A DNA stretch of 62,969 nt, filler included, from Asterionella formosa (GCA_002256025.1; 26 parts of 26 records of this genome joined end to end with filler, not necessarily neighbours in it); one strand, 5' to 3'. Numbered from the whole stretch's first letter, positions 14,501-57,242 are shown. A program made the numbers and translations. Notes: generated by a model not told the origin, from the letters alone.

Positions 14501-16878
14501 TCTTTGGAAAAATGAGGCAATGTGCGTCGCTTGAATCCATAAGGGATACGCTTGCCTTCCACGTTTTGCTGTCCGACACAGGCGATAATTTGAGAAATGT
14601 TAATAAATGAACCTTTGGAACCTGCGGTCACCATGGCCTTGACACTGTTCGTCTCATCAAGCGACGCCTGAGCCGACTTTCCAGCATGATCACGAGCAGT
14701 ATTCAACACCTTATTAACGTATTGTTCAAAAGATTCAATCATAGTCCGACCCGGTTGGGCTTCCATCTCTCCACGCTGTCCCTGACGGACCAGATCCAAC
14801 ACTTGCATTTTGGCCTTGTTGATAGTTGCTTCAATCTGACGCATGGTAGCAACATCGGCAACCGCATCCGTCACTCCAATTGAGAAGGACGACTGCAAGA
14901 CCCAATGATTGACCAATTGCTGGACTTGACTCATAAAACGAGCATTATCTTCCCAACCAACGTCAAGCCAAGCCGTGTGAATTAATCCTCCCATGGATTT
15001 ACCAATGGTATTCTTGTCGATTACCCCTTCCAAGAGTTCACCTTCTTGAACAGTGACAACATTATCATAAGCATTGAAGGTGTTAGACATTGTTTTTCCG
15101 GATTGATCCTTGGACGGCCCATTGTTGGCACGGGCTTTTAAGTTAATTTTGGGCATAATGAGAGTCAATAGCTGCTTCCCAGTCCATAGCTCCTTCGGTT
15201 TCAAAATGGCAGGAATTGGAATATTCCCGTCCCACTGAGGAATCCACATAAGCATATTGAAAACCAAGTCTTTGGCAATGAAGACATCTCGCTTGGTCAT
15301 TTTCTGAACAGCAATAAGACTGTCCTGGACAATTCCCATGACAGGGCGGTTGGACTGTCCACTGACCACCACTCGCGGACACAACATCATGAGTTCGGCT
15401 TCGGCTCGAGCCGGTAGCGATTGTGGCACATGCAAGTTCATTTCATCGCCATCAAAGTCTGCATTGTATGGGGATGTACATGATAGATTCAATCGAAAGG
15501 ACGACCAGTCCAAGACTTTGACCAAATGGCCCATGATACTCATCTTATGCAAAGACGGCTGACGGTTGAACAAAATGACATCCCCATCTCTCAGCTGCCG
15601 TTCAACAATCCATCCATGATTGAGCATCAATTCACTTTTGTTTTTGACATAGCGCAAGTCAATTCTGGTTCCATCCGTACGAATAATGTGCTTTGCTCCT
15701 GGATGCTTCGTTGGTCCATTCGCGACTAGTTGTGACAACTCGTTCCGATTGTAAATCGTAACGCGTTCCGGGACAGTTAGATTCATGGCAATAGAACGTG
15801 GCACGCCTACTTGATTGATCCCAAGGTTTGGATCCGCTGTAATGACGGTCCGAGCAGAAAAGTCCACACGCTTGCCCATTAGATTTCCTCGAATTCTTCC
15901 TTCCTTTCCCTTGAGACGGGCTTGAATGGTCTTCAAGGGTCTGCCAGAACGTTGCGTAACTTGTGGCATGCCACGAATTTCGTTGTCCATAAAGGCAGCG
16001 ACGTGATGTTGTAGGGCAATTTCGAATTGTTCTAGAATAATGTTGGGCTCGCCGTTGGTAATGGCAGTGGATAGCGCGATGTTACTCTTAATGACATTGA
16101 CCAATTGGTGCGTGAGGTCATCTTCCGATGTGGCCCCACCTGCTTGTACGGAAGGTCGCACATGTAGCGGTGGCACAGGCAATACCTGTACGAGGAACCA
16201 CTCAGGCCTAGCGTGCGTAACATCCAGGCCCAATGCCTTCATGTCGTCTTCCTTCATTCTCCTAAACAATTCCACCACCCGTTGACCGGACAGGAATTGT
16301 TTAGAGTCTCCGCCGACGTGATCTTCCCCATACTCCGCTTCTAGATGAAGACCGACTTTGGTGAATTTTGGCTGTGATCCTTGGCAATGATCACATTTTT
16401 TCTTGCCTCTCAACAAATTATGAAAAGCATCCAGTCGTCGCTTGCGCGATCGGATGGACTTGCATTTCTGGAACTTGAACTCGTCTTCTTGCATGACGAG
16501 TCTCGAGCAATGAAAGCAGATGCATCTCAACGTCTTGAGCATGGGATTGAAGAATCCCTGGTGATACACACTCTTGGCCAGCTCCAAATGGCCAAAGTAT
16601 CCCGGATCCGACTTGTCGTGCAGATTTCCCAGCCGCGGATCATTCGCACCTCCATAGACTGGCTGCCCATTGACTTGGGTTTCATACCGCGTCACACCCG
16701 CCGGAATAGGCCGGCCGTTGATGTTCATGGCCTGCGTGACGCTGTACTGCCGCAGCTCGTGGGGATTGACAATGCCGAATTGCAACTTCTTGACGCGGCG
16801 AAGGCGGACATGAGAGAAGCCAAAGTTCTCCGATCCCATGCCCAAACTAGCTGCGCCTCCAGCATTTTGGGGAGCCAT
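11552..16878 (-). CDS. RPB1: RNA polymerase II largest subunit; 2 exons (16878-12143, 12074-11552)
   Basis: [16 protein letters not shown], catalytic NADFDGD, bridge helix [11 protein letters not shown], trigger loop TQMTLNTFH. The spliced second exon encodes the heptad CTD. Confidence 0.99.
11585..12070 (-). repeat. CTD heptad array: YSPASPS + 21x YSPTSPA + YSPASPA
   Basis: Translation of ORF 11552-12097; 21-bp period with heavy synonymous variation. Confidence 0.97.
12075..12142 (-). other. 68-nt spliceosomal intron in RPB1 just before the CTD
   Basis: GTAAGT donor and pyrimidine-rich TTTCCAG acceptor. Splicing joins CC+T (Pro) and keeps the frame [12 protein letters not shown]. Confidence 0.95.
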
Positions 16879-17599
16879 GTTGATTTTCTATGTAGATTGG
16901 TTGTTGATTGTTTGGCTGGGTGCTTTCAGGTAGAGTGTAGAGAATGGAGCAGATGAAGATCAGATCAGATCTGATCGGATGTTGAAATCACAGTCAGGCA
17001 GCAACGATTGAAGCTGCGATGCTTTGTCTTGTGTCAGAGACACTCAATTATGCGCGTTATCCTTTCTTGAGTGCGTAACGTTATTGATATGTATGCTTAG
17101 ACAAGGGTTGAGTGGTGGAAAAAGACGAGCTACACCAATAGCAGCAGCAGCAGCTCCTTAGAATCGAAGATTATGATATTTACGATAAATATCACTATAT
17201 TTGTATGTCCTGCGGGTCAGCAGTGCAAATAAATCATGATTCAAGGAGAGCACAGGAGCTACCAGAACATAAGTAGGGGGGAAGCACACAGCAGCAGCAT
17301 AGTACCAGGGTACCTGGTACATGGTACAAGCGTGGGTTGTCATCAGCCGCACATCATTCAAGGAGTCCTATGTTTTATGTATTCTTACCGGCATATCAGA
17401 ATGGAAGTCCATCCAGGTACAGGTAATACGTAGGTACTTATACCATTAGATAAGCAACAGACGAGGAAGAAATTTAGCTTATTCTTTTCTTTAGTGCAAA
17501 ACGTGTTTTACAGGACCTTCCAAGGCAAAGTTGTTGATTAATAAATTTTACATGCATCTATATGGCATGTACAGACACAGCATTACCTTGGGCCTTTAA

Positions 17600-19138
17600 G
17601 TTCCTGCATTTGAACCCCTAGGCAAAAATTAAAATATTGCTTAGGGTTGCCGAAATTCTCTGGAACTGAGAATATTTATGAGTTAATTTTAAATGACGTG
17701 ATTCCATTTGAAATATTTAAATCACTGGAAATTTGTGCATACATACATAAATACATAGATTCCTTTTCGAATTCAATAAATATATACATAAACATTCTCC
17801 ATCACTCAATGTTTATATTCCCTATCATACAATCAACATGGCTGTATGTATCAGACGAGCTGGCAGCATGGCAAATATTGTGATGACTACCGGTAAGAAA
17901 TGAAAAAGCAACAATCAGGCATGAGCGAAATTACACATTACAATGATGAAAATGGTCATGACGAATTAAATATAGTCATGATAGGAGTTGTCCTACCTGT
18001 CAAGACTGGTTTTGATTGTAGAGTCATATATGGAGGGATGTGAGGATCGCATCTTCTGCAAATGCTGCGTTTTTTTCTGGAGGCCTTCAATATCGAGTGG
18101 CTTCGGTTGCTGGGCAACACACACAAGGAGCAACACAATGCACAAGGAATATATACAAGCAATGTGAAATGCAGATGTCAGCACTGCAAGAATCCTTCTG
18201 GAGACAAAAGAAAAGCGAAAAAGTGACGATGGAGCCTATAAAGCACAATTCAAACAAAAGAGGAAACGAAGCGAAAAAAAGCATGCAGCCAGATTTGAAA
18301 CAGTCAAACAGGAAAGTCAAGACAGCAAATCAGGTAAGACTTACGGTTCTGGTGTTGCGCTCAGCCAGAAGGGAACATCAGGAAACAAGAAGGAAAGGAA
18401 CAAATGTCTGCCATCATTGTGGCCACAATGATCATCAAAGGAAAAGCAGTGCACTCTGGTGTCCATTCAATGTACCGGTAGGCAAAGTGCCTGATCATAC
18501 TGATATGCATATGATCAATGATTATCAGATAGTAGTACCTACTGTGGATATTGTACCGGCCAACACCCAAGAAAATGTTATATCATATGCATGCAGTGTG
18601 GCCAGCTTGAGTTTGCAAGACCGCGCAAACCAGGCCAATCAATAGTTGGTAAGTAATTGAACTTGACCAATCAAAATATTTAGAGTGAAGCATGCACTAC
18701 AATGGAATTTTTTGTACAGGCGATTGTAGGAGGACGAAAAATTGAATCACAAGACTCCTATTCCGATGATGACATTTCGGCAATTAGTGATTCTGATTCC
18801 GACATTTTGGTGACCGTTGAAAAGGTCGATATTGTCGAATTTTCGAGCGATGATAGCTCAACGTTGGCAGGGTTTGATGAAGAGTTAGGTAAATAGGTAA
18901 TCTTCATATAGCCCCAGAAGTTAACTTTCGGCGAGAAACTGCAGAAAGGAACNNNNNNNNNNNNNNNNNNNNNNNNNNNNNNNNNNNNNNNNNNNNNNNN
19001 NNNNNNNNNNNNNNNNNNNNNNNNNNNNNNNNNNNNNNNNNNNNNNNNNNNNNNNNNNNNNNNNNNNNNNNNNNNNNNNNNNNNNNNNNNNNCTAGGCCA
19101 AATAAACAAGTTGGCCCAGTAAAATCCATTGTTTTCAG
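17600..19138 (+). mobile_element. Degenerate Kolobok-like (TTAA-inserting) DNA transposon carrying a transposase C-terminal remnant
   Basis: Starts after TTAA with (G)GTTCCTGCATTTGAACCCCTAGG, the same end as the copies at 53447 and 54621. 18555-19138 is homologous to 52515-52960 (reverse). The internal ORF has FSGGLQYRVASVAGQHTQG and CHHCGHNDHQRKSSALWCPFN. Confidence 0.7.
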
Positions 19139-24501: not shown

Positions 24502-25577
24502 CCCTGAGTAAGTAAGAGCTACGCCGGATGTTGCTGAGCATGTCGGCGTTCTTGAACACGGAGATTGTCGACTGCGAGTCGAGAAGGATCCACTTAGGAT
24601 CAATCCCAGGGTCGCCGGTCTGTGCAAGCATGTATGCATACTGCGTCAATGTAGTGCCCGAGGTCGTCGATCCCTGCCTGTCAGGGCAGTCTCCCGCATA
24701 GTGTCCTTGGCTTTGGCAGTTGTAACAGATGATGCCATCATGTAACACTCCATTACTGCCTGCGATTTCGCCACGTTGTGTAAACGTCATTGCACTGGCC
24801 TCAGGGCTTCCAGTCGGCTGGGGGCGTGGTGTATCTGTCCTGATGCTGGTGTTCGTTGGAGTTCTGTAGTTGACGAGAAGGCTTTGGGCTGACAACAAAT
24901 TGGTGGGGTACTGGTCAATTCCCATTGCATACTGGTTTGACAGGTCAGTGATGAGGGTGCCATACCTGGTGGGGTCAGCACTTCGAATCAGAGCGATTGC
25001 AAGGGTGCGTTCATGTGCGATCTCCTTTCGCTCTTCAGTGCTACGCCCATTCCCGTCCTGATCCTGGAAGGGTACCAGTTTGTAATTTGCTGCCACAGTG
25101 CCGCCATGGTACTCGATGGTCTCAGCCCATCCTCGCAAACACTCGACGTAGTCTTCTGCGGACTGTCCTTGTAACTGACGACAATTGAGGAAACTGGTCT
25201 GGGCGTCCAAAAGTGCAATGAAACCATTCCTGCTCTGATCGAACTGTAAAGTAATCGACTTGATCTGTTTTAGAAGCCAAAAACAATCATTGTTGGCAGT
25301 CTTGTCCTTGTAGTCATCGTGTGTTTTGACCTTTGCCTTCATGTCATCACTACACTGGCCCCAAATCACCGCATACACTGTTGCTAGGTTGCTCTTTAGG
25401 GTATGATTGCGCTTGACATACGTTTTTACTTCTTCTGCGAAAATCATTTTCATGGTCATTCCTGCATCGTCATCTAGGTCATCTGGCATGTCTACCATGG
25501 GAACCGCCATGGTGTCGGCAAACAAAGGGGCAAGGTCTTCAGAGTACTTCAGTGTTTTCCTCACATATCCGTCTAGA
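24502..25577 (-). mobile_element. Copia/CoDi-like LTR retrotransposon gag-protease fragment
   Basis: Open frame across the contig with IWGQCS, CCHC knuckle CYNCQSQGHYAGDC and protease motif WILLDSQST. Confidence 0.9.
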
Positions 25578-25677: not shown

Positions 25678-25976
25678 TTGCCTTCCAGTGGCATACCGGT
25701 AGTAGGACTGAAGCGCGTCCAGAAAGATACGCTCCTTTTCGGCTACTGTGAGACGAATGAGTTCCCCACTTTCCGGATCGACGACACAGTATTCCTCGTC
25801 AGGAATGCATTCTTCTTCCTGCAAGTTACCGGTAGTCTCAAAGAATCGTCCAGACTTGGCGTCGTAAGCGATTTCTCTCGTTCCGCTCGTAATGGTGATC
25901 TTTTCGTCGCTTCCTTCTTCGGCCATTAAAAGTGGACCAGCAACGGCCACACGACCAGCTGTTGTCGTTGTCTTCC
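25678..25976 (-). pseudogene. PGRL1: PGRL1-like (PGR5-like protein 1) gene fragment, 5'-truncated at a repeat junction, with two apparent in-frame 6-bp insertions
   Basis: CIPDEEYCVVD..LIRLTVAEKERIFLDALQSYY resembles the PGRL1 N-terminal region. TACCGGTA at 25694 and 25827. No signal peptide upstream of the TTAA at 25977. Confidence 0.65.
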
Positions 25977-25999
25977 TTAAAGTTCGATGATCTTAAATT

Positions 26000-26460
26000 C
26001 ATTTACCGGTACCGGTACCGGTACTGTCCCGCTGTAGTAGCAGCAGTCATAGACATACCGGTATGGTGTTCTATTGCTTGCTTATTACCGGTACCGCTTT
26101 TCAGTTTCACGATCATACAATCCTAAAACTAGCTACCGTATGATGATTTACTATGGTGTGATATTGCTTGCTTATTACTCCGACTACCACTTTTCAGATT
26201 TACGATCATACGATCCTAAAACTATGATGATTTAATGTCCCACTAAATTTGCAACAGTCATGAAAATATGGTATTTTATTTGTTTTTAGTTTTTCGATCA
26301 TACGATCCTAAAACTATGATGATTTACTGTCCCACTAAATTTGCAACAGTCATGAAAATATGGTGTTTTATTTGTTTTTAGTTTTTCGATCATACGATCC
26401 TAAAACTATGATGATTTACTGTCCCACTGCAGTAGCAACAGTCCTGAACATATGGTGTTC
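26000..26460 (+). repeat. Tandem repeat, ~92-bp unit, about 5 copies (first two degenerate)
   Basis: gatcatac(g/a)atcctaaaact recurs at 26111, 26204, 26296 and 26388. Confidence 0.9.
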
Positions 26461-26461
26461 T

Positions 26462-26652
26462 GTACCTGGTACCTGGTACCAGTAAAGTACCTGGTACCTG
26501 GTACCAGTAAATTACCTGGTACCTGGTACCTGGTACCCGAATACCGGTTGCGTACCTGTAGGTAAAACCGTCCTTCCCCGGTTAGCCAACCCAGCAGCTG
26601 CAGCAGCAGCAGCTGCAGTACCAGGTACCAGGTACCAGGTACCAGGTACCAG
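26462..26652. repeat. (TACCTGG)n and inverted (TACCAGG)n heptamer arrays flanking a CAG run
   Basis: Read directly at 26462-26537 and 26618-26652. Confidence 0.9.
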
Positions 26653-26855
26653 CAGCAGACAATGGTGGACTCGGAGTACCGGTAAGTTGTTGGTCGTCAA
26701 GGGACGAATTCCCCTGAATTCGCTCTTAACTCTTTTTTGCACAACATTCGCACNNNNNNNNNNNNNNNNNNNNNNNNNNNNNNNNNNNNNNNNNNNNTTA
26801 ATTAATTAANNNNNNNNNNNNNNNNNNNNNNNNNNNNNNNNNNNNNNNNNNNNGC

Positions 26856-28029: not shown

Positions 28030-28603
28030 TAATTTAAATATCTCCCTGGCTTCTTCAAGGTAATTGTTGTCTGTCCATCCTGACTTAGCAATGGACGTAA
28101 CCTGTGAATAGAGGGCGCAAAACTTTGTCACATCTTGATTGATTGTTCCCCATCGAGCAGTGCACACTGTTGAGGTGTGATCCTTCCCATCTGGGATAAG
28201 CTCAACATAAATCTCGAATACCCTGCTCCAAAACTTGCTTGCTTTCTGACCAGTCCCAGTGATTGCATCTTCACTTGCAGTTACCCAGGCCCGAGAGAGT
28301 GCTTCGTCGCCTTCCTTCTCCCACATGACACCGGAACCCATCCTGACAATGATGATTGCTGTTTTATGACATTGACTCAATATGATCATGTACACACCGC
28401 ACCAAGATCACATTGGCCTATAGAGTTCTACATGAAGAGACTATAGTGAATATACATCCTCGATCAAGACTAAAGCATATTTGGTCTTGGTTGATGCGGT
28501 GGCTAAAATATTTTTGCTTTTTCGACCAACAAAACGCATCATGACGTGTAATGACCCGCAACTTCAATTGGCTTGGTATTTGGTCGATGCGGTGGTGATG
28601 CTC
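28030..28603 (-). mobile_element. PIF/Harbinger-like element (family A) with Myb/SANT-like ORF2
   Basis: End at 28603 followed by TAA, homologous to 23794. The ORF WEKEGDEALSRAWVTASEDAITGTGQKASKFWSRV..RWGTINQDVTKF..SGW is typical of Harbinger Myb-like proteins. Confidence 0.85.
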
Positions 28604-28716
28604 TAATACTAGTACCTGGTACCCTGGTACCAGGAAGTCAGGGCACATAGAGAAAAATTGTAACAATTTAATTTTAATATGTTCAATTACATCTATAAAA
28701 CTGATTCACTTTACAC

Positions 28717-31449
28717 CTAGAACGGCGAGAGACCTTTGGATCCCGAGGTACGATCCTTAAACTCAAGCTTAGATACTCTGTCACTTTCCGCTCGAATGCA
28801 ACGAAATAGCTTCACAGCACGCTCATCCGCATCTCTCTTGCCTTCGAAAAATGTCGTTTTGATCTGAACTGTATTCATGCGCATGATAGTCCGCCCATCG
28901 ACACGACAAGGAAAAACAAAATCCTCGTCAATACATTTCTTCTTCTTCAGGAAATCGGCAACCTGTTTTCGATCCCATTGCTTGGGAGCGCATAAACCTT
29001 TCACTGGTGCTTTTGATGGGACGACAATAGCATGCTTCAATTCTGTGCTACCATCTGCTCCAACAAACCCTGCCAAGGTTTTAAGCGTTTCCAAGGTGTG
29101 TTCTGTATCAGTAGCATTAGGGGCAACTGTGGCAATTACACACAATTGAGAATTTTCGCTCTCAAATGGAATACGAAGGATGCGAGTCAAATTACTGGAA
29201 CGGTATGGTATGTGAACAGCCGCAGTGCCACTGCCGGATGCTCGAGCGCGAATGCACTCTTTTAATGCCCAGAGACTGGCGTTGATCTCTGAGCTCTCCA
29301 GTTGCCGTTCACGAGAGTGATATAGACTATCATTCTTTCGTTCACTTCCAGCAAGATCCAGCAAGGTCAACATTCCAACTAATGAGTTGATATGAATTGA
29401 GATTTGGCAAACAGCATGTGAGCGACTAGAAACTCCATTGCGATCCGTTGCTTCAGTCGTGCGTCGTTGCTTGCCTCTGGCAATGAGCTGCGAGAGTTCC
29501 GCTGGGTTTGAAACATAAACAGTTGCAGCATTAACAAGACGTATTGATCCATCCACTTGATCCACCACCTTGACCTGTCCTTCCTCCAACAAATCGGAGC
29601 ATAGCTTTCCTTTCAACTCTATAAATTGAACCGACACTTCCGCCCTTGCTGGTATGCTTTGAAATAGATCATTGCAGACACGCTCTTCAATTCCAGTCAT
29701 GGTGAAGCTTTTGCCTGACCCAGTCTGACCGTACATTAGGATGGTAGCATCACCTCCCTGTGCTGCACGATTTACTAAAGGTCGTGCAACAAGATGATAC
29801 AATTCTTCATTAGAGCATTCTTCGTCAAAGGCAGCTGAACAAGGAAACGATACTGATTGGATCTGCTGCTGATGCATATCTGCGTGCATTTGACAAACGT
29901 GAACAACCACTATGTCGTGGTCCTCCTTGGCTTCCGGAAACAATACATCAAAATCACCACGATCCAACTCGTAATCAAAAATAGGACGCTTTCTTACAAA
30001 AATTGACACTCCGTTCTTTCCAAAACCACCACGCAGGTGCAGATTCTCATTCAAGTAATGATTGGGCCTAGACGAAGCATGCTGAATGCGGCTTGAAGCT
30101 ATACTAGCTTTGAAGTCATCTGCATGCTGTAATCGGGCAGTTTTCTTGTCCAAGTTTCGTCGCGTGTTGGTATTATCGCTGGCTGCGCTGGAGGAGGCCC
30201 GCTGCTCTAGCTCTCTCTCTATAGCAAGGGGAGTTTCAAAAGTTCTTGTAATTCGAGAAGGATTTTTCACCTGATTGGGGGAAGACCATCTACGTTCTAT
30301 CGGTGTCGTGATTTGCGGGGATGAAAGTGGAGCTGGTGGGACAGGTTCAATTGCTTCTGGAGGTGTTTGCTGCACCACTGTCTTCACAAGGGGCTTTTTC
30401 AATGCCGACAACAATTCCGTTCCTGGGCTACCAAAAGGATTCTTTCTAAAGGCTGGAACTGAAGTTGTTGTTTCTTCCGACTCTACCTTCAAAGTTTCAC
30501 CCTTGATATTGGGAGCATCAGGACTGATCATGCCAACAAGCATGGCGACGCCGCGACTATTTTCTCGCAGCTTTGCATTGCGAAACGACATTGCTTTGCT
30601 TGCCGTTTTGTTAGGTTTTGGTGCGTCTTGCTTCGGTTTGGTCTCCCAACTGTATTTTCTGGCGACGGAAGCAGCAAGTTCTAGCTTCTTTTGTTCTGCC
30701 TCCTCAACCGTTTTCTGTTCCAACGCTTCAATGTTTTTTAGTTTGATATTCGACCTGACTAATTTAATTTTTGAAAGACTGGTATTCGAGATGACGGTAG
30801 AAATTGGAATAAAGTCCTTCTTTGATGTAGTTAGTTCTGTCGTGGCCACCAGAGGTTCTTCTGACTTCTGGTTTCCCTCATGAAAATGGTTATCCACTAA
30901 TGTAGTTGGTTTCATCATGGCTGCCGAGGACAGTTCTGGTGTCTGGCATTCACCTGGCAAAATCATCTCCATTAGTTTGGAAGGCTTCCTTTCAACTGTT
31001 GGGTTGGTGAGAGGTTCCCCAGATGGACTCAAGGCATATTTGGAAGGCTTCTTTTCAAATGTTGCGTTGTTTGGAGTTCCACCTGATGGACTGAAGGCAT
31101 ATGCAGATCCTCGATTTCCCAGTAAGTGTCCTTTCTTGGCCAGATATTCACGTCGGCCCCCTGGAGATGGAGTTGATAAGGGTTTCGGGGTCGTCGCCAA
31201 CGGGGTCCCAACATTAATGCCTGTTATTGCTCGTAAATTCGTCCTACTAGTTACACGCAAGATTGTGCTGTCACCAGTGGGTCTCTTTCCTTGTTGCTTC
31301 CCCTTCTTCAGGATAGAAGCAGCATGGCACGATTGCAACTCCTTCCATGTCATTTCCTTCTTTGGCGTGTTTCCGCTGGTTGCCCCATTCGTTGGCGTGC
31401 CGAGCTCGGCATTTTCCGAAGGTCCCTCAAACCTTTCCTGCTGCATCAT
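28717..31449 (-). CDS. Kinesin-13-like motor protein with long disordered N-terminus and a SAM-like C-terminal domain
   Basis: VRKRPI, P-loop YGQTGSGKSFT, switch I NGVSSRSH, switch II DLAGSER, EINASLWALKECIRA, HIPYRSSNLT. Start taken at MMQQ. Confidence 0.92.
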   Translation of the reverse strand: MMQQERFEGPSENAELGTPTNGATSGNTPKKEMTWKELQSCHAASILKKGKQQGKRPTGDSTILRVTSRTNLRAITGINVGTPLATTPKPLSTPSPGGRREYLAKKGHLLGNRGSAYAFSPSGGTPNNATFEKKPSKYALSPSGEPLTNPTVERKPSKLMEMILPGECQTPELSSAAMMKPTTLVDNHFHEGNQKSEEPLVATTELTTSKKDFIPISTVISNTSLSKIKLVRSNIKLKNIEALEQKTVEEAEQKKLELAASVARKYSWETKPKQDAPKPNKTASKAMSFRNAKLRENSRGVAMLVGMISPDAPNIKGETLKVESEETTTSVPAFRKNPFGSPGTELLSALKKPLVKTVVQQTPPEAIEPVPPAPLSSPQITTPIERRWSSPNQVKNPSRITRTFETPLAIERELEQRASSSAASDNTNTRRNLDKKTARLQHADDFKASIASSRIQHASSRPNHYLNENLHLRGGFGKNGVSIFVRKRPIFDYELDRGDFDVLFPEAKEDHDIVVVHVCQMHADMHQQQIQSVSFPCSAAFDEECSNEELYHLVARPLVNRAAQGGDATILMYGQTGSGKSFTMTGIEERVCNDLFQSIPARAEVSVQFIELKGKLCSDLLEEGQVKVVDQVDGSIRLVNAATVYVSNPAELSQLIARGKQRRTTEATDRNGVSSRSHAVCQISIHINSLVGMLTLLDLAGSERKNDSLYHSRERQLESSEINASLWALKECIRARASGSGTAAVHIPYRSSNLTRILRIPFESENSQLCVIATVAPNATDTEHTLETLKTLAGFVGADGSTELKHAIVVPSKAPVKGLCAPKQWDRKQVADFLKKKKCIDEDFVFPCRVDGRTIMRMNTVQIKTTFFEGKRDADERAVKLFRCIRAESDRVSKLEFKDRTSGSKGLSPF

Positions 31450-32090
31450 GATGGATTTACCAAAAAGAATCGCGATCGAACAAATGAAAGAGGGACATAT
31501 AATGTGGTAATGCACAACGGATATCCGTTCTTTGTTTTGTTTTTGTGGGTGACTGTTGGTTCAATGATATTTTTCGCCAACAACGACAGCTCGGCTTCCT
31601 CGTGTTCGTCATGAACCGAAAAATGTACAGGCAAGCCTGGCGAGGGTCAAGAATTTGAACGGGGAACTTAACCTTCCATGAGCATACGTATGATGGTTTT
31701 GCATGATCTATATAGCTAACGCGCAAACCATGGCCGATAGACACAAGCGATGGTAGATTACCGGTATGTACAAGAATTATTTTATGTATGCGCATGAGTG
31801 GATGAGCGATGTACGTATATATGTATATATAATGCCGGTGCTTTCCGTTAGGATAGAGCGACGATGACCGCGCCATCATTTGTCTTGGCTCGTTTGAACG
31901 GTCTGTTTACAGCCAACCAGGTTACCGGGTACTGGTACTGGTACCAGTAAAAAACCGCTGGTACCATGTAGACTTTGAAGGAACATAGGGAAACCTTCTG
32001 TTGGTTGGTCGATACAGTCTTTGCATCCTTGAAGTGCATTGATTTTGCCGGTAAACTCTTGTGCCTCAAGTGGGAGGACATGCTGGTGAT

Positions 32091-32288
32091 GCTTTTTCTT
32101 TCTTGCTTGCAGGCCTCCTTTTTCTTCACATTCTTTTTGACTACTAGCAGTAGGTCAAGGTCAAGCACAGATCTGGTTGGGTTTCTAATGTTGTTCATTA
32201 CATTCCAAGTACTAGCGAGGCATAATGGCATGAAATAGGACAATGCCTTCTTGTAACATTCAAATGAAGAGGAACTCCGTTTGGCCAT
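32091..32288 (-). pseudogene. Crypton-like tyrosine recombinase remnant
   Basis: RSSSSFECYKKALSYFMP..WN....NPTRS....VKKKE..KQ resembles the N-terminal region of stramenopile Crypton recombinases. No catalytic domain remains. Confidence 0.55.
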
Positions 32289-32447
32289 ACATCTTCACAG
32301 CCATACATTTGTATGTATCTTCAGACTTGATATCTGCAAGCTACTGTAGACTTATCGCATTGTTCTTATCATATTCTATCACATCTTTGTAGGCCATCAT
32401 GGCAAATATAAGCCTCCTGTATCAAGCGCATTGCAAAGGTTGGTCTT

Positions 32448-32593
32448 GTGTTAGAAAATTGACACCGCTCAAGCTTGGTTTCTTGATGTATCACATGATT
32501 GCCTTCAACTATAAAAAGACAATCTTGGCTGTGTTAGAAAATTGACACCACTCACACTTGGTTTCTTGAGGATGCATCACATGATTGCCTTCA
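32448..32593 (+). repeat. Imperfect ~60-bp direct duplication
   Basis: tgtgttagaaaattgacacc..cttggtttcttga..atcacatgattgccttca occurs twice. Confidence 0.8.
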
Positions 32594-32950
32594 GCGAACA
32601 CTATCTTGTTTTATGGTTGAAAACTCAGCATGCTTGGGAATGTTCTTGAGACAATCCTTGAATGATTATTGACTGTCGAAGTAAATCATAACCAAGTGAA
32701 GGGATTGGTCAGCATCTTTCATTATGTGATTCAATTCAAACATTTGCTGCCAGTCACTAAGCTATACAATGCAGAACTTCGGATGGTATGCGGAGTCTAT
32801 TGGGACATCATTTAGTTTCTCCTGACTTTGTCACTTCTGCAAATTAACTATTGTCCCTTTAATTTATAACACTTTGTACAAGTCATGACTACGACATACC
32901 AGTATGCTTTTTGCACTGTGTTGACCATTAGCAGGAGTTATCTTCATATC

Positions 32951-34219
32951 CTATTGATGCAAGGTATAATTTCCTAGAAAAAATTTTGACACAAATGCTG
33001 CAGAGCCTGGGTTAGAAAGTAATGTACCTCCAAATTCGCTAAAAGAGCTTCCTTGGGTTTTCACTGTGGAGTTGGCTCGAGCAAGGAGGAAGATATCAAC
33101 CCACACATTCAGAATACCTTCCAGATCATTCGATGATATTCTAGATACATCAGTATGAACAATTTTTGTGTTGGCGTATTTGACAAATGGATCCATGGCA
33201 GATGCAGCAAGGCGAATGTTGTCTTTGTCTGTTATCAATACAACAGGAGTTGATTGTGTAAACCATAGTTTTTTCATCTTGTTGGCACAGGATAAAAATT
33301 CCTGTATTTCTCCACGAAAATAATTATTTGTATTATTTTGTCCACGAAATTGCCCATCTCCTGTCCGAATATGCACTGCAACGAAAGTGCTATCCCATGA
33401 AAGAGAAAGCTGCTCACTCACTTCCGACATGCGAGTGACGAGAATCTTAGTAGGCTTGTACAATGCAAAAAACAACCACTTGTAAATATCATGTTGGAAA
33501 TTCTTTTGAGTAATGTTGTATTTGGACATAAACATTTGCATTTCGTCTTTCCTCCAAAGACCCTTAAAGTTTGGTGGACTATTTGCTTTGATATAAAGGA
33601 GTTGACTGGAGATGTTGGGCATGAATCGAGAAGGAAAGTTTAGCACAGGTGGTTTTATATTGCGAACATCCATAAATGATAACTTCATTCGTAATTTATT
33701 TAGCTTCAAAGACTTCTGGTCAGGAATAGCGTAGTTCCATTCCAGTAAGTGCGGGCTGAGGATTTTATCGAGGCGTACAGGACGGTCAATGTCAATGAGA
33801 AAGACGCGCCTGGTCAGAATGGACACCATTAGAGCTGCAAGGATCGCTCGTTGCTGGTTTGCTGTGCCGGAACAATTTGACCTGTCCCGTGATTTGCAAT
33901 AAAAAACCATGTAGTTGTTCTTATCCTTAACATTGCTGCCTTTGGCTTTCCTTGCTTGTGCGAGTGAGTTCCTATGAAATGAGATGTATTCTTCCAACCA
34001 TTTCGGCACCTCGGTGTCAATACTCGGTGCAACAACGCGCCACGGATGCGAAAGATCTTCAATTTCTGCCGCAGCTTGATTGTCCACAACCGGGGATTCA
34101 TATTTTGGCATTCGGAGAGCTAGCAAAACGTTTCCCGTCGCGAGACAGAACGAGGCGACACTTATTACTTTTAGTAATGGCAATATGCGAAGACAGTGCT
34201 TTCGCTTGTTTGTTGTCAT
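32951..34219 (-). CDS. Fucosyltransferase-like glycosyltransferase (GT-B fold, type II membrane)
   Basis: N-terminal TM, motif I VAVHIRTGD, motif II LITD, motif III DIFLLARA..SSFS. Start uncertain (34219 or 34282). Confidence 0.7.
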   Translation of the reverse strand: MTTNKRKHCLRILPLLKVISVASFCLATGNVLLALRMPKYESPVVDNQAAAEIEDLSHPWRVVAPSIDTEVPKWLEEYISFHRNSLAQARKAKGSNVKDKNNYMVFYCKSRDRSNCSGTANQQRAILAALMVSILTRRVFLIDIDRPVRLDKILSPHLLEWNYAIPDQKSLKLNKLRMKLSFMDVRNIKPPVLNFPSRFMPNISSQLLYIKANSPPNFKGLWRKDEMQMFMSKYNITQKNFQHDIYKWLFFALYKPTKILVTRMSEVSEQLSLSWDSTFVAVHIRTGDGQFRGQNNTNNYFRGEIQEFLSCANKMKKLWFTQSTPVVLITDKDNIRLAASAMDPFVKYANTKIVHTDVSRISSNDLEGILNVWVDIFLLARANSTVKTQGSSFSEFGGTLLSNPGSAAFVSKFFLGNYTLHQ

Positions 34220-34825
34220 AATCAATCCCAAGGAAAAGAGAAAGACTGAGAGTGAAGCTTGATTCAGAGAAAGGACAAGCATCGGTGGAAGTGTACATTG
34301 ATATATTACTCACTCCGTTTTCAAATTTTGTTTGATCTTCGCAGAGGCATGAAAGATTACCATGTTACCGGTACATGCATACCGGTATCATTTCTTTTTG
34401 TCATACATTTATGTGTATGGATGTGGCTGTGTGGTATCATATGATGTGCGTCTGCATCCACGACACGGTCGTCTTTGATTGAAAGTACCTGGTACCAGGG
34501 TACCAGGGTAACGGTATGAACTTCGAACTATGAAATATATATGAAAGAAACGTGCTACCGGTAGCCTAAAGGTAGACTAGATAGTACCAAGGGGTACCAG
34601 GTACAGTAATGAGCAATAACAGTGCATCGTGCATAGATCAGAACCTACATAGACAACATCTACATACCGGTAGTTTTGGGAGTAAATTATATTGTCGTAC
34701 GGACCGCACATCATTTGAAAAATTGTACTCCCACGTACGACCGTCAGCGAATCAATCATACATGCCTTCTGGCTTTCATTGAATGTCAAATTGAAAACAT
34801 ACATTGCGCTGCAGTAACCAAGGTT

Positions 34826-36334
34826 ATGACTTATGCAGTAGCACCACGTAGCTGCTTCATCATGTGGATGGGCACACTAATGGTCTTGACGAGCCGACAG
34901 GTTGCAGCCTTTGCGCCGTCTCGATTCTCCTCGATGCGCCCATCGATAATGGCTTCCTTCTCAGCTACCACGGAAGATTTGGAAGCGAGTATCAAGGCCA
35001 AGGGGGATGAAATTCGTCTCCTAAAGGAAGGAGGGGCTGATAAGTCAGCGGTTGCCCCGTTGGTGGCGGAACTGTTGGCCTTGAAGTCGCAATTGGACCC
35101 ATCCGTCAAAATACAGCCAACGCAGAAGGTAACCCAAAACGAACAGCCACTACCGGTCAAGGGGAAACCCGACAGCGATGACGACGATGAAGAATCGGAT
35201 TCTGATTTCATTACATCTAGAGAAGAAAACTACTCCAAATGGTACAATGATATTATTCGTGTCACTGGCCTAGCCGAAACCTCCCCTGTCCGGGGTTGCA
35301 TGGTTATTAAACCATGGGGCATGTCCATCTGGGACCGCATTCGTACCAATCTAGACGCAACGATTCAAGACCATGGAGCTGAAAATGCATATTTTCCGCT
35401 TCTCATCCCAAAGTCGTTTCTCTCAAAAGAGGCTGAACACGTAGATGGATTCGCAAAGGAATGTGCCGTTGTGACCCATCACAGATTGACGGCGGGTGAA
35501 GGTGGATTGATTGCTGATCCCGAAGCTGAATTGGAAGATCCTCTAATCATTAGGCCAACTTCTGAGACTATGATTTGGTATATGTTTCGGAAGTGGATTA
35601 ATAGTTACCGGTGAGTTGAATTTTAGGTGATGTTTGGTTTTTTCTTTTACTTGCCAACAACTAAACGATCCTTACAAAACGCCATTATGTTATTTTTCCC
35701 AGGGATCTACCATTGAAGGTTAACCAGTGGGCCAACGTTATGCGATGGGAGCTTCGAACGCGTCCTTTCCTGCGAACATCTGAATTTCTTTGGCAGGAGG
35801 GTCACACGGCTCATGCTACCGCAGAAGGAGCGATAGATGATGCGCGCACAATGATGGAAAATTATGCCCTCTTGTGTGAAAATCTTTTAGCCATGCCTGT
35901 CGTCAGGGGTTGCAAGTCACCGTCAGAACGATTTGCTGGCGCCGAGGAGACGTATACTATTGAAGCATTGATGCAAAATGGATGGGCATTACAAAGTGGA
36001 ACTTCTCATTTCCTCGGACAGTCCTTCGGAAAGGCCTTTGAAGTCACCTTTCAGGATGAACAGAACAAGCTGCAAGATGTTTGGGGAACATCGTGGGGCG
36101 TCTCAACTCGCTTGATTGGGGCTTTGATAATGACACATTCTGACGATGCTGGTTTGGTGTTGCCACCCCGTGTGGCACCAGTGCAAGTGGTGATCGTTAC
36201 TATTGATCCCAAGAAGAACGACGAGGCTGGTAAGGCTGCAATGAAAGAGGCTCTTGATACTTTGGTAGATGGTCTCAAAAAGCAAGGTCTTCGCGTGAAA
36301 GTGGATGACAGAGAGTACGTAAGAAATGGAGCGA
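34826..36334 (+). CDS. proS: Prolyl-tRNA synthetase (organellar, eukaryote/archaea-type) with plastid presequence and WHEP domain; intron 35611-35702; 3' end in gap
   Basis: ENYSKWY, IRPTSET, spliced [58 protein letters not shown] at 34901. Confidence 0.95.
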
Positions 36335-37261
36335 NNNNNNNNNNNNNNNNNNNNNNNNNNNNNNNNNNNNNNNNNNNNNNNNNNNNNNNNNNNNNNNNNN
36401 NNNNNNNNNNNNNNNNNNNNNNNNNNNNNNNNNNNNNNNNNNNNNNNNNNNNNNNNNNNNNNNNNNNNNNNNNNNNNNNNNNNNNNNNNNNNNNNNNNNN
36501 NNNNNNNNNNNNNNNNNNNNNNNNNNNNNNNNNNNNNNNNNNNNNNNNNNNNNNNNNNNNNNNNNNNNNNNNNNNNNNNNNNNNNNNNNNNNNNNNNNNN
36601 NNNNNNNNNNNNNNNNNNNNNNNNNNNNNNNNNNNNNNNNNNNNNNNNNNNNNNNNNNNNNNNNNNNNNNNNNNNNNNNNNNNNNNNNNNNNNNNNNNNN
36701 NNNNNNNNNNNNNNNNNNNNNNNNNNNNNNNNNNNNNNNNNNNNNNNNNNNNNNNNNNNNNNNNNNNNNNNNNNNNNNNNNNNNNNNNNNNNNNNNNNNN
36801 NNNNNNNNNNNNNNNNNNNNNNNNNNNNNNNNNNNNNNNNNNNNNNNNNNNNNNNNNNNNNNNNNNNNNNNNNNNNNNNNNNNNNNNNNNNNNNNNNNNN
36901 NNNNNNNNNNNNNNNNNNNNNNNNNNNNNNNNNNNNNNNNNNNNNNNNNNNNNNNNNNNNNNNNNNNNNNNNNNNNNNNNNNNNNNNNNNNNNNNNNNNN
37001 NNNNNNNNNNNNNNNNNNNNNNNNNNNNNNNNNNNNNNNNNNNNNNNNNNNNNNNNNNNNNNNNNNNNNNNNNNNNNNNNNNNNNNNNNNNNNNNNNNNN
37101 NNNNNNNNNNNNNNNNNNNNNNNNNNNNNNNNNNNNNNNNNNNNNNNNNNNNNNNNNNNNNNNNNNNNNNNNNNNNNNNNNNNNNNNNNNNNNNNNNNNN
37201 NNNNNNNNNNNNNNNNNNNNNNNNNNNNNNNNNNNNNNNNNNNNNNNNNNNNNNNNNNNNN

Positions 37262-37913
37262 TTCTTGAAGGGTGGTCATCACAGCTGGGTCGGTTGAACG
37301 GAGTCCATACTGGTTGCCCCTGAAATAAGCGCATGGCATGAACGATATTATCCATGTCACAAGTGAAGCGATGATAAATCCCTTCTGGTAAAGTCATGAG
37401 ATCGCCCTTTTTGACATGAATGCGAATCCAGTTGTCTTCTTTGTCGCGAACATCGAAGAAGCCAGATCCACCGACGATGTAACGAATCTCTTCAGCATCA
37501 TGAATATGCTCTTCAAAGAAAGATTTAAGTTTCAATTCATATTCCGGCAAGTGATCCGGGTGCACTGTAATGATATCAGCATAGCTGTAACCACGATCAT
37601 CACGGAGCTGTTGTAGCTTTGGATCCATTGCATCTTTGGGATCCCAAGGAACGGCCTTGATGGGGTACGTGTAACTTTCAGCGTCCATTTTCCAATATGC
37701 GATACCAATGTCCCGCAGTTGCGCGACGGAAATCGGGACGTTGGGCTCAAGCCTGTTGTCTGCCTTTTGATCTTCAATGTCGCCTTGGACCATCATCCAT
37801 GCTTCAGGCCATTCCTCGTCGGGGGCTTCAGCCAGAACCATCTTTTGCTTCTTTATGACCGGGAGTTCTTGGTTAGAAGGAGTCTTGTTATCACAAACCT
37901 CGTCAATGCTCAT
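37262..37913 (-). CDS. ADI1: Acireductone dioxygenase (methionine salvage); 3' end in gap
   Basis: RGYSYADI, FFEEHIHDAEEIRY, GSGFFDVRD, LPEGIYHRF, AMRLFQGQPVWTPFNR. Confidence 0.95.
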
Positions 37914-41035: not shown

Positions 41036-41240
41036 TACCCAGTAAGTAAAAACGTGTTTTACGGGGGTAACCAGCAAGTTGCGGTCATTTTGCTGAAATA
41101 AACATTTTAATCTAGGATTAAAAAGCGCTAAATCTCCAGTTTCAGCATACCGGTACTTACGACGGCAACTTTCAGGTACTGGCACTGTACTCCCATTACT
41201 CAGTACCTACGACACATTGCTGTTTGCTCGTGGGGTCTAC

Positions 41241-41338
41241 GACCGGCAAGTTCCGGTAATTTTGCTGAATCTAAAAGTTTAGCTATCTTTATCCCATATT
41301 AAATTGTTAGTTGAGCAAAATTACCGCAACGTGCGGTC
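41241..41338. repeat. ~98-bp fold-back mini-element with ~28-bp imperfect inverted ends; relatives at 41071-41177, 54622-54683 and ~56185-56213
   Basis: gaccggcaagttccggtaattttgctgaa versus ttgagcaaaattaccgcaacgtgcggtc. The core gcaaaattaccgc recurs on three contigs. Confidence 0.7.
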
Positions 41339-42057
41339 TTCATGTACCGTTGGGTGGAAATGCAGGGTGTGTACCAGGTACCAGGTACTGGTAGTATGCT
41401 CCGAGTTTATGATTACCGGTACCAGGTACTGACGTACGCGCATACGCGTATACCCGAAAATGTCTCGATCTGACGGAACAACAAGTTAACTGATATTGAT
41501 CCGCCAGCAGGCGGCGGGTGAGAAATAGGGACAATAATATTCTTCTGGCAGCGGTGTAATGGAGATGGAAGTCGGGTTTACTACAAAATTGCACTCCTAA
41601 AGCATATTTACTATTTATGCAGTATATTCAGAGGTAAAAACTGATGCTTCATCCTTGACTAAGTAAAATGTATGAAGGGGAGGAACAATGGGTAAACAGG
41701 TGTACCGGTAGTGAAACGAAGTGGTGACCAAATTATGGGATGAAGGAATTTTCGGCAAGAATTACCACTTTTCCGGGCGACCATCAAACCTATCTGTAGT
41801 TTTTCACACTACCTCGAGAACTAATTGAAAATGATATTCGAATAAATAGTGCGTCTACATTTGAAGTGTCTTTATTAGTGGAGATGAATAAATCTTCAGC
41901 AATCAACGAAAGTTCCTGAACCAACTTAAAACAACTATTTAACAGGTTTTCGTATACTCGAAATCGAATAAATAGTGCGTCTATATGTGATTTGTGTTCA
42001 TGATTAGTGTCGACCTCCGTTTGACGTTGAGACCCTCCCGCAAGGCTGTGTGATGCA

Positions 42058-45066: not shown

Positions 45067-45354
45067 ATGATTCTCCAACTAGACAACTGGCACCTTGGCT
45101 ACGCTCAAATTCTGACCGACTGCCGTCAAGGAGGGTCCGTGTGGATCTTTTGTGGGGCTGATGCAGACGCCATGGCAGCTGCTCGCATCGTGAGTTATAT
45201 GCTCCGATCAGACGGGATATCCTACCAACTTCGCCCTTGTTGGACCTACAGCAGTTTGGAGAGAATGCTCGAGGAGGCAGATGATTGCAAGGCAATCTTG
45301 TTGTTGAATCTTGGTGCATCTCGTAACTTGACCAAGCTTTTTAGACCAAGACTG
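45067..45354 (+). CDS. CDC45: DNA replication factor CDC45, N-terminal part (cut by scaffold end)
   Basis: VWIFCGADADAMAAARIVSYMLRSDGISYQLRP..ILLLNLGA, the DHH-like Cdc45 N-terminus. Confidence 0.85.
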
Positions 45355-54621: not shown

Positions 54622-55095
54622 TTAATCTAGAGGGTAAAGATAGCCAAATCTTTAGTTTCAGCAAAATTACCGCCACTTCCAGGTACTGGTTGGTACCAGG
54701 TACCAGGTACCTTTATATTGACAGCCATGCGGATCATTGTGGAGGAATNNNNNNNNNNNNNNNNNNNNNNNNNNNNNNNNNNNNNNNNNNNNTTAATTAA
54801 TTAANNNNNNNNNNNNNNNNNNNNNNNNNNNNNNNNNNNNNNNNNNNNCCACTCTACACTCAATTACACCTTGACAGGCGATTGACAAGGTGTTCCCACA
54901 ACCACCATCATCCCCGCTTGACAGCACTAGAAGTCAATACATATGTTATATTGATATCAGGAGGGTTAGAATTTTTAAAATCCAGGCTGTGCACGTCAGC
55001 AACTGCCACGCAAGCTGCCCTATCTCCAATAGAGTAGCTAAAAGGCGCTGAGAAAGTGAAGTTACTATATATTATATTTGTGGTGTCAATATCAT

Positions 55096-55346: not shown

Positions 55347-57242
55347 CTGTTATGCTTGTAAAGTGTACATACAATATGATCAGCATACAGTAATGTATAC
55401 TCTCAAAATTTTGGCTGCGTCTGAAATGCATTTTGATCAAAACATATCAAACTGTCATTTTTGTTTCATGTGATGATACCACAGTAATGTATACTTTCAA
55501 AATTTTTCAATATGTCTAGTTGGCATATATCTTGTTGCTCAAGTTATTCTGCAGTGATGAGTGGCTGTGTATAGCATACATACCGGCACATCACTGAGCC
55601 AACGTTATTTACGTCTACCATAAATTTTACTACAATGATGTGCTGCAACCATTTTCTCACTGTTCTACTCATCCCTGGCTGAACAAGAAATGCGCACAAT
55701 CATAGAAACAAAGGTGCCGTGTTTAAGGAATTGAAATTGTTTCACGCCATAGTATGCAGGTCCTGCCACTTTCTTCGACTTAACAAAACATCACCTGCGC
55801 ATTATTTCTCACCTATCATCGTGATACAGTTCATTTCAGGAGTGCTTCAGAAACACCATCTCCGTCCAAATCAAGGGTGACCTTGTACGGGCGTGTGAAA
55901 AACAGGGTATCCCTTGAATTGNNNNNNNNNNNNNNNNNNNNNNNNNNNNNNNNNNNNNNNNNNNNTTAATTAATTAANNNNNNNNNNNNNNNNNNNNNNN
56001 NNNNNNNNNNNNNNNNNNNNNTTGTAGGCTAAATCAGATTAAAGTTACAGACAATTCCAAACAACCAGGTGGTCAGGTGGTTTATTAAATGAAAAATCAA
56101 AAGAGATACACATGAATCAATTTGGAATTGGAATCACTATTGCCAGCATGATGACGTATGTAGCACTAAAGTTTGGATACTGCTCGTTAAGCAAAATTAC
56201 CGCAACTTGCCGGTATGCTGAGTACCCTGATACCAGGTACCTGGTACCGGTACCACCATCTTGCTTCATGTGCATATTTTTATGCATCATCACGCACATC
56301 CCGGACTTTCTACGACTAATCAGAGTTGATTTTTCAACCAAAAAGGGAGTACAAAATCAACTGTCAATGCAACGGGGTTGATTTTTTCTTTGTTGTACAA
56401 TACTGTATTTTCTCGTGATCTAGTACGGAAAAATACCGTCAAGGTATTTTACCATCCGCAGTAGAACGATACTTGAGGCCTACAGAAAAATACAACCTGG
56501 GTTGATTTTTACAAGTAATACCGGGATACTGGTACCTGTATTTTCATTCAGTGCGTTCAATTTATACCACAGGAAGAAGTGCATACAATTATTGTAACAT
56601 ATATAATGTACGTACATGGTGCCATCCATGTGTGTACATTATGTCCATGACAGAATTATAAGGGCACCCTGGTACGAAAAGTGTAAAATCACTCTGTTCC
56701 AGTGTAAATGCAACACATTCAGCAACTATAACCCAACTCAATCCACATCCTTTAATAAAGCCCTCTGTAGAAGCAAAAAGCAATATGCATTTTCTATGCA
56801 AGACCATGCAGGCAACAGGTACATCAGTTAGATTAGTATATTTAGGCAAGTATTATAGCAATATTGATTTTACTTGTATTTTGCTAGCCAGCATAATTGT
56901 TTTGCTCTACATGCGAGTATCTCTACCTCCACATTTCCACATTTAGCCTTCATGAATGCCATTGCAAATTTTTCCTCGCTCTCCATTTATTCTAATTGAA
57001 TACATAACAACTCCTGTCTCTGCAATTCATTTTCCCCATATGTGGAATCTTGGAATTGTTTCTGCTGTGGCATGATGAAATTTCTTCCAATTAANNNNNN
57101 NNNNNNNNNNNNNNNNNNNNNNNNNNNNNNNNNNNNNNTTAATTAATTAANNNNNNNNNNNNNNNNNNNNNNNNNNNNNNNNNNNNNNNNNNNNGTTTTT
57201 CGACTGAAGTCTGAACTTCAGTTCATTCCCATTTAATTGTCA

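Follow-up and report, generated by a model that had tools for sequence, protein, structure and literature searches.

Short TA-bounded insertions in the DNA of a diatom as probable excision scars of a TA-targeting transposon

Introduction

A tandem repeat on the plus strand of the Asterionella formosa DNA presented here (26098..26462; four copies of about 92 bp, period 92, 2.9 copies, 93% matches) offers clean copies that serve as an internal reference for degenerate copies of the same unit, in which short groups of letters have been added at TA dinucleotides, each group ending in a duplicated TA. The locus thus raises the question of what writes such additions, where they occur and whether they are still being made. 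The initial annotation, drawn from the sequence alone, proposed that they are footprints left throughout the genome by one or more very active TA-specific elements with CC../..GG ends. We address this question using the whole stretch of 62,969 bases in which the repeat lies, referred to below as the window, together with related loci from public metagenome assemblies.

That the excision of a transposon can leave a footprint is textbook knowledge. In the available part of the Tc1/mariner account, the non-transferred strand is described as cut a few nucleotides inside the element, and the resulting 3' overhangs of the tips give rise to end-joined footprints (PMC8151067). Footprints of the form TA + 2-4 bp + 1-2 bp + TA, as well as re-insertion beside an old footprint, are reported in the accessible text on a Stowaway MITE from a single locus in the Triticeae (PMC1925063). 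A comparison of Asian with African rice, as far as its available sections go, recovered 94 DNA-transposon excisions across 63% of the two genomes. Only 8 of them were 'perfect'; the majority were accompanied by filler DNA (mean 13 bp) or by deletions of the flanks (mean 18 bp), and the authors saw in excision an important force of mutation (PMC4423477).

Materials and Methods

The window comprises 58,996 called bases in 29 contigs, 25 of them of about 1.07 kb. Its contig joins consist of artificial N44-TTAATTAATTAA-N44 linkers and a few plain runs of N. The commonest raw 8-mers are TTAATTAA (51 copies) and its shifted forms; their top raw count is due to the stitching linkers and is an artefact only. 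Expected k-mer counts were calculated from an order-2 Markov model of the window's 58,996 called bases only. The five repeat copies (25955-26462) were aligned with MAFFT, copies c2-c4 (26191-26462) being taken as the clean reference.

Contigs of public runs were compared with the window over positions 28030-45354, where runs X7 and X10 give scattered low-depth cover only. A 20-nt MITE end used as query retrieved 18 metagenome loci, some of them orthologous to one another or to the window, corresponding to 13 non-redundant related loci beyond the window; 24 non-redundant MITE ends were retained after orthologous duplicates had been dropped.

Results and Discussion

Insertions in the 92-bp repeat and in the adjoining arrays

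Alignment with the clean copies confirms insertions at TA that end in a duplicated TA at the three places where they had initially been noted. At 26004..26023 three units stand at one TA of a degenerate copy, giving TA(CCGGTA)x3 in the context cattTA-ctgtccc, where the clean copies read gatttactgtccc. At 26056..26063 a lone unit CCGGTA at the TA of gacaTA-tggtg produces TACCGGTA (copy c4 reads acatatggtg), and at 26130..26140 the TA of aaaacTA-tgatg carries TA+GCTA+CCGTA, an atypical double insertion in which CCGTA would fit a one-sided CCG remnant. TACCGGTA is also found in copy c0 at 26086..26093, aligned with TACTCCGACTA in copy c1; here either state is possibly the ancestral one. The initial description of insertions only at TA holds for the three TA insertions and not for the other differences between the copies, which include a 36-nt deletion in c1 and about 23 extra nucleotides at the ends of c0 and c1. 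Similarly, the CC..GG pattern describes the CCGGTA units and not the GCTA unit; GCTA and TGTA, a unit met elsewhere, both lie outside the proposed CC..GG scheme.

The right part of the same contig can be compared with a more diverged orthologue (L003), and three of the four gaps in this comparison are units or arrays of units. At 26463..26537 TACCTGG, TACCAG and related units form an array whose higher-order period is 25 bp; it is partly conserved in the orthologue, a (TACCTGG)x3 array being common to both. The unit CCTGTA in TACCTGTA (26553..26560) is not present in the orthologue, and neither is any part of the (TACCAGG)x5 array at 26619..26652. The unit CCGGTA in TACCGGTA at 26677..26684 is also missing there, the orthologue reading ggaGTAagt. 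This last unit lies within the TA of GTAAGT, after a short ATG-started frame (atggtggactcggaGTAagt in L003), and duplicates GTA, so that GTAAGT persists 6 nt further on; if GTAAGT is a 5' splice site, the insertion adds two codons or shifts the donor.

Enrichment and distribution of the units

TACCGGTA occurs 33 times in the window against 0.69 expected and ranks first by observed/expected ratio among all 8-mers with at least six occurrences; its recurrence at 4488, 4843, 4981, 5693, 9904 and 21514, as given by the initial annotation, was verified. TACCWGGTA is observed 25 times against 0.6 expected (TACCTGGTA, 14 against 0.30; TACCAGGTA, 11 against 0.30), TACCAGTA and TACTGGTA 8 times each against 1.26 and 1.21 (together 16 against 2.5), and TACCAGGGTA and TACCCTGGTA 4 and 2 times against 0.06 and 0.05 (together 6 against 0.1). 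The units related to TACCGGTA are thus enriched 6- to 70-fold in the window. Control palindromes that are likewise bounded by TA show no such enrichment: the counts in the window are 2 against 1.83 for TACATGTA, 1 against 0.33 for TAGGCCTA, 1 against 0.32 for TACGCGTA and 0 against 0.13 for TACCATGGTA. A chance origin of the motif enrichment is excluded.

Counting eight unit types, the window contains 84 units at 53 places, i.e. about 1.4 per kb, and 40 of these 53 loci are lone units at unrelated TAs. Units are borne by 14 of the 29 contigs, including all four long ones, which is fewer than the 'most contigs' first reported. The related MITE-bearing loci reach 4.0 units per kb, a figure biased upward since these loci were picked by their MITE end. 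The letters follow a common scheme, TA followed by CCGG, CCWGG, CCAG, CTGG or CCTG and a second TA, and most arrays are mixtures of unlike units (CCGG, CCAGG, CCTGG, CCAG, CCCTGG). The fourth unit letter is specifically G: TACCAGTA is counted 31 times against 0-8 for the other three bases at this position, and in the same count TACCTGTA reaches 9 against 1-4 and TACCGGTA 46 against 2-8.

The flanks of the target TA (n=73) show G at -3 in 0.40 of the sites against 0.19 in the background (p 4e-5) and C at +3 in 0.34 against 0.19 (p 0.002), a weak symmetric preference of the kind expected from a dimeric integrase-type enzyme on its target. Only one of the 84 units lies inside a Pfam-supported ORF, where about 22 would be expected, such ORFs making up 26% of the bases; this sole unit is situated 28 nt inside the upstream end of the open frame, well before the recognized domain. 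Such avoidance fits insertions that are neutral to harmful.

The units are reproduced in independent data. Logan contigs of run X1 match unique stretches of the window with 0-1 differences, and a contig of run X2, which stems from another study and year, spans 34259-34845 with one substitution, no gap and eight units (34366, 34380, 34486-34501, 34556, 34595 and 34665). In the array region 41285-41501 the sequence of run X2 differs from the window by 13 gap letters. The unit motifs are also present in separate JGI/ENA metagenome contigs, and the contig with the 92-bp repeat occurs in public runs labelled as algae, freshwater, lake, river, waste-water and drinking-water metagenomes.

A MITE family whose tips carry the letters of the units

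Within 28030-45354 the joints of Logan contigs at highly repeated stretches fall at motif arrays, and this led to the recognition of a MITE end. One such array, TACCTGGTACCCTGGTACCAGG at 28613..28635, stands just past the edge of a highly repeated stretch, with contig joints at 28606, 28633 and 28636. The MITE is about 90 bp long and its ends read CC-N-GCAAGTTGCGG...CCGCAACTTGC-N-GG, the termini being CC(G/A/T)GCAAGTT... and ...AACTTGC(C/T/A)GG; they belong to inverted repeats of about 25 nt with the core GCAAGTTGCGGT(C/A)ATTTTGC. Five ends are found in the window at no more than 3 mismatches, against 0.02 expected, and 23 exact occurrences in the 18 loci. Complete copies of about 90 bp are present in L001, L002, L007 and L008, at the locus seen in the three versions L005, L009 and L018, and at 41243-41336 of the window.

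The window copies, all on the plus strand, illustrate the proximity of element ends and units. At 41071..41093 a left end consists of CCA+GCAAGTTGCGGTCATTTTGC with TA-A before it. The complete copy at 41243..41336, about 94 bp long, reads CCG+GCAAGTTCCGG ... CCGCAACGTGC+GG and is not flanked by TA; on the plus strand it is bordered by GA...TC, so that TC stands outward of both ends, which looks like a part of the inverted repeat and not like a duplication. About 35 nt past its right end follow the mixed arrays of 41372..41428 (CCAGG, CCAGG, CTGG ... CCGG, CCAGG), in the region where run X2 has its 13 gap letters. At 54661..54709 the end ...CCGCCACTTCC+AGG is followed by TA and by the units CTGG.., CCAGG and CCAGG, and at 56191..56253 the end ...CCGCAACTTGC+CGG is followed by TA and by the array CCCTGA, CCAGG, CCTGG, CCGG; the orthologous locus L010, compared over 56022-57094, has an equal number of array units with other centres.

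Among the 24 non-redundant ends, 21 have the form ...AACTTGC + 0-3 letters + GG. TA follows directly after the end in 11 of 24 cases against 2.2% by chance (binomial p ~1e-12), and a complete unit lies within 40 nt outward in 12 of 24 against 4.6% by chance (p ~1e-10). In 17 of the 21 ends with GG the next letter is T, and several ends read GGTC. TA on both sides is seen only for the L005 copy, four other complete copies having it on one side or on neither. The number of letters between CC/GG and the MITE core varies from 0 to 3 even within one subfamily, which is odd for the part that a transposase should constrain most. The tips CCT and TGG occur together on the L008 and L001 copies. Units are also found inside MITE copies, for example TACCAGTACCTGGTACCGGTA in L003 (396-560) and TACTGGTACCGGTA in L005 (560-600), which makes the elements targets as well as sources.

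Several candidates were discarded. The match in L011, on a 1.7-Mb contig, is taken to be due to chance, having neither an ending of the type xGG-TA nor a unit, and the same view is taken of L019 and L020, two matches in bacterial MAGs that came from the search of genome contigs with the MITE end and hold no unit. Viral contigs gave no match to the MITE end; the matches of three of them to the array pattern, which have plain flanks and 2-4 units in 6 kb of sequence, are regarded as chance ones. A search for further inverted repeats of the CC...GG type flanked by TA returned nothing beyond the arrays themselves. Pfam detected no transposase domain in the 73 window ORFs of at least 100 aa nor in the 18 ORFs of the related loci (59 kb and about 27 kb, respectively), and a PDB sequence search with three contig-filling ORFs that lacked an explanation gave nothing useful.

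Gain of units between natural haplotypes

Three of the retrieved loci (L005, L018 and L009) are versions of one locus. Over 1282 aligned bases L005 and L009 differ by 18 mismatches and 12 gaps, and TA-bounded units account for 10 of the 12 gaps: CCGGTA, CCGGTA+CCTGGTA, CTGGTA, CCGCTA, TGTA, and whole array units added or missing. Of the other two gaps, one reflects a tandem duplication of 5 nt and one, at the alignment end, is unreliable. In gacaaaTAaaTAtgc the unit CCGGTA is found at the first TA in one haplotype and at the second, neighbouring TA in the other, and two of the unit events sit within the MITE itself. A second pair (L006 and L016) shows 14 mismatches in 1221 bp and six gaps, none of which is a unit, indicating that the process is patchy.

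These comparisons indicate that the units are gains at formerly plain TAs, a polarity read from three clean paralogues against one with units, from the alternative TAs in two haplotypes and from the absence of units in L003, rather than from a formal outgroup. Because closely related natural haplotypes differ by many units, the writing of units is recent and recurrent and still seems to be running. In the small sample formed by L005/L009/L018, L006/L016, L010 with the window and L003 with the contig of the 92-bp repeat, no site filled in one haplotype was found opposite a scar or a virgin TA in another.

Excision scars as the most probable origin of the units

The reading that we favour, with a probability of roughly 70%, is that TA-CCGG-TA, TA-CCWGG-TA, TA-CCAG/CTGG-TA and TA-CCAGGG/CCCTGG-TA are excision scars of a TA-targeting cut-and-paste transposon with the ends CC-N-GCAAGTTGCGG...CCGCAACTTGC-N-GG, and that re-insertion builds the arrays. 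The scar letters, bracketed by two copies of TA, match the tips CC-N-G.../...C-N-GG of the resident MITE, as is demanded of an excision footprint. Moreover, the fourth unit letter G is the first letter of the conserved MITE core, so that the unit letters agree with the element tips. The main expectations of the initial annotation were borne out: enrichment over a Markov background is strong, the indels that separate paralogues as well as orthologous haplotypes cluster at TA and duplicate it, the motifs are present in run X2 and in the JGI/ENA assemblies, and an element with the predicted ends exists, its tips being CC(T/A/G)G... and ...C(A/T/C)GG. The footprint interpretation is thereby supported, none of these points having turned out against it; its 'genome-wide' extent is extrapolated from 59 kb and 13 non-redundant related loci.

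The proposed course of events is as follows. A MITE of about 90 bp would integrate at a TA and duplicate it, as is partly observed. In analogy with Tc1/mariner chemistry, a transposase would then excise it, leaving 2-4 terminal letters, CC(N) and (N)GG, and end joining would fuse the flanks to TA+CC(N)GG+TA, the product that is seen. CC and GG together would give CCGG; CCW and GG, or CC and WGG, would give CCWGG; and one-sided four-letter remnants would account for CCAG, CTGG, CCTG and also CCGG. Tips CCG and CGG could anneal by two bases to yield CCGG, and tips CCT and TGG by one base to yield CCTGG. Each scar would provide two new TAs, and elements landing there again or hopping locally in and out would generate mixed arrays of the (GGTACC-N) type, which slippage or duplication could then lengthen. 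The association of arrays with element ends is an observation, to which this model would add the order of events: unlike units stacked beside element ends suggest re-entry into scars or local in-and-out hops, and mixed arrays fit separate events. One feature constrains the model, since CCGG is the commonest scar and yet C precedes GG in only 3 of the 21 ends, so that mostly 2-letter remnants, or trimming, are needed.

The variable 0-3 nt between CC/GG and the MITE core, which look more like a junction than a transposon tip, would find a ready explanation if a TA-specific process (a nuclease or a domesticated transposase) wrote CC(N)GG between duplicated TAs and the MITE landed separately in the centres of the palindromes. 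This alternative, which we judge unlikely, would also agree with the finding of neither a transposase nor a filled-to-scar series in the window and the related loci, and with the ratio of 84 units to 5 recognizable MITE ends in the window. However, it requires two unexplained processes where one suffices, and we know of no mechanism that puts a fixed CC on both ends of a break. Furthermore, GG is kept at 21 of 24 ends and TA at 11 of 24, the reverse of what is expected for a pre-existing TACC-GGTA target, and the one-sided units CCAG, CTGG and CCTG bear the first letter of the MITE core. A related version, in our opinion quite unlikely, holds that most sites were never occupied by an element, a TA-specific enzyme (a lone or domesticated transposase) breaking the TA, repair writing CC(N)GG and the MITE homing to the palindromes. 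If true, it would amount to a sequence-writing mutator that locally works at a rate comparable with that of point mutation, about 10 unit events standing beside 18 substitutions in 1.3 kb.

The arrays could also be regarded as an ordinary micro- or minisatellite of GGTACC-type units, shaped by slippage and unequal exchange, to which the MITE is only incidentally near. Arrays that differ by whole units between haplotypes agree with this, and the homogeneous arrays, (TACCGG)x3.5 at 26004 and (GTACCAG)x5 at 26619, together with the 25-bp higher-order period, indicate that slippage or duplication also contributes; it may be a secondary influence on these two homogeneous arrays. As a general origin it is very doubtful. 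Slippage requires a pre-existing repeat and therefore cannot create lone units at unrelated TAs, which represent 40 of the 53 loci; nor does it accommodate independent single insertions at two neighbouring TAs in two haplotypes, the mixing of unlike units in most arrays, the association with MITE ends (p ~1e-10) or the paralogue and orthologue comparisons, which already point to de novo units at virgin TAs. We attach a similarly small probability to the idea that TACCGGTA and TACCWGGTA are selected functional sites, bound by a dimeric protein or related to methylation, that were retained and multiplied in non-coding DNA. They are indeed perfect palindromes containing CCGG and CCWGG, keep to non-coding DNA (ORFs hold 1 of 84) and often lie near gene ends, but coding avoidance is equally expected for any insertion of 6-8 bp, and clean TA-duplicating insertions of 6-8 letters, occurrence in MITE copies and satellite repeats, and different TAs in neighbouring haplotypes would be left unexplained. 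Finally, the stitching of the window from short contigs with N44-TTAATTAATTAA-N44 linkers might raise the suspicion of a sequencing, linker or assembly artefact, whose probability is close to nil: the units lie inside contigs and not at joins, recur letter for letter in contigs of run X2 and in separate JGI/ENA assemblies, vary in a structured manner between sources and avoid ORFs.

Comparison with known systems

The scars resemble the footprints of Tc1/mariner elements (Sleeping Beauty, Tc1/Tc3, Mos1) in that a duplicated TA surrounds tip letters, which here match the tips of the resident MITE. Those footprints were obtained experimentally with a known transposase, whereas the diatom units are known from sequence and have variable letters beside CC/GG; the available part of the Tc1/mariner account mentions neither a density such as that of the diatom, with 84 units in 59 kb and one unit as the top 8-mer, nor scars stacked in tandem (PMC8151067). 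In the intron of the Triticeae beta-amylase gene, according to the portion of that study at hand, a Stowaway MITE, likewise a small non-autonomous TA-flanked element, left putative footprints in which two TAs enclose 2-4 bp from the 5' end and 1-2 bp from the 3' end of the element; repeated independent losses and gains at one site and elements within older footprints were described, which is the same logic as that of diatom scars beside MITE ends (PMC1925063). The Triticeae example concerns one locus over millions of years in a plant tribe (PMC1925063), whereas in the diatom 59 kb hold dozens of loci, haplotypes about 1.4% apart are polymorphic for units, and an array can comprise as many as about 10 of them.

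The rice study, in the sections available, also compared close genomes in order to catalogue the residues of excision (PMC4423477); unlike the rice products reported there, those of the diatom are uniform units of 6-8 bp with no flanking loss, and they are far denser (PMC4423477). With mariner-derived MITEs such as human MADE1/Hsmar1 the diatom MITE shares a short palindromic organization of about 80-90 bp with two inverted ends and, at some of its ends, the TA flank. The 19-nt end core of Hsmar1, as given in the accessible part of its description, has GCAA and TTGCGG blocks in common with the diatom MITE end (PMC8327481), but the spacing of the blocks differs by 5 nt and the remainder is unalignable, so that the likeness is a weak lead and no evidence of kinship (PMC8327481). 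Our literature search, which extended to sources other than subscription journals, returned no description of such scars in diatoms or elsewhere, and the papers containing TACCGGTA or array strings were, among the matches listed, only those with primers or barcodes. With respect to the known cases, the scale and uniformity of the scars, the building of arrays and the ongoing activity are unusual.

If the excision-scar reading is true, the diatom carries a very active TA-targeting cut-and-paste system in which each jump leaves a standard mark of 6-8 letters, and such marks would make transposition countable in natural populations of an algal group of ecological importance. The transposon would be a major source of short insertions, scar events amounting to about half of the point differences in one haplotype pair, and would provide a birth route for the (GGTACC-N) repeat class and for many new CCGG and CCWGG sites. 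The element might be turned into a tool for insertional mutagenesis in diatoms. The uniformity of the scars, set against the untidy excision products reported in the available sections of the rice study (PMC4423477), bears on double-strand break repair in these cells. The system should be of interest to both transposon and diatom genomics.

Other repeats and gene content of the window

A second, unrelated element of about 2.45 kb occupies 38586-41041. It has inverted ends GGGCTGTTCTTATCAT, TAA as its left flank and TAC as its right one, contains tandem repeats of about 60 bp at ~39100-39570, has no Pfam hit and is covered to a very high summed depth by runs X1 and X2; its TAA flank and end sequence are reminiscent of PIF/Harbinger elements. 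Another highly repeated stretch is found at a contig start (28030-28607) and contains an open frame on the minus strand (28030-28407), whose tryptophan-spaced N-terminus looks by eye like a Myb/SANT-type DNA-binding domain; Pfam gave no hit for this frame even at E=10. The stretch is followed by a degenerate copy of the MITE end, aatgacccgcaacttca, and by the scar array mentioned above. The contigs 52501-53574 and 53675-54748 share 98.95% identity over 952 bp, and the similarity breaks off abruptly where one of the two enters half a MITE and a scar array; a third copy, about 81% identical, is present at 18557-18952. The three are probably copies of a larger repeat whose edge attracted the MITE; they are uninformative with regard to the units, around which the copies are too diverged.

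The DNA of the window is eukaryotic and intron-poor, and its ORFs comprise, according to Pfam, a kinesin, a protein kinase, an acireductone dioxygenase and pieces of copia-type gag and integrase. A protein search with the dioxygenase returned, as named relatives, diatoms alone, at identities of no more than 79%, which places the DNA among the diatoms with no close named relative in the hits. Two whole 1-kb contigs, 24503-25576 and 60718-61698, are retrotransposon pieces and hold no scar unit; they include a gag-like ORF with a CCHC zinc knuckle and a copia-type integrase (rve and a retroviral SH3-like domain). The RPB1 gene, which is likewise free of scar units, is represented by a single exon of 1579 aa on the minus strand (12142-16887), and the heptads of its CTD, 11 Pfam repeats, lie in a second frame or exon just downstream (11555-12115, minus strand), which implies a short intron or a frame change between the two.
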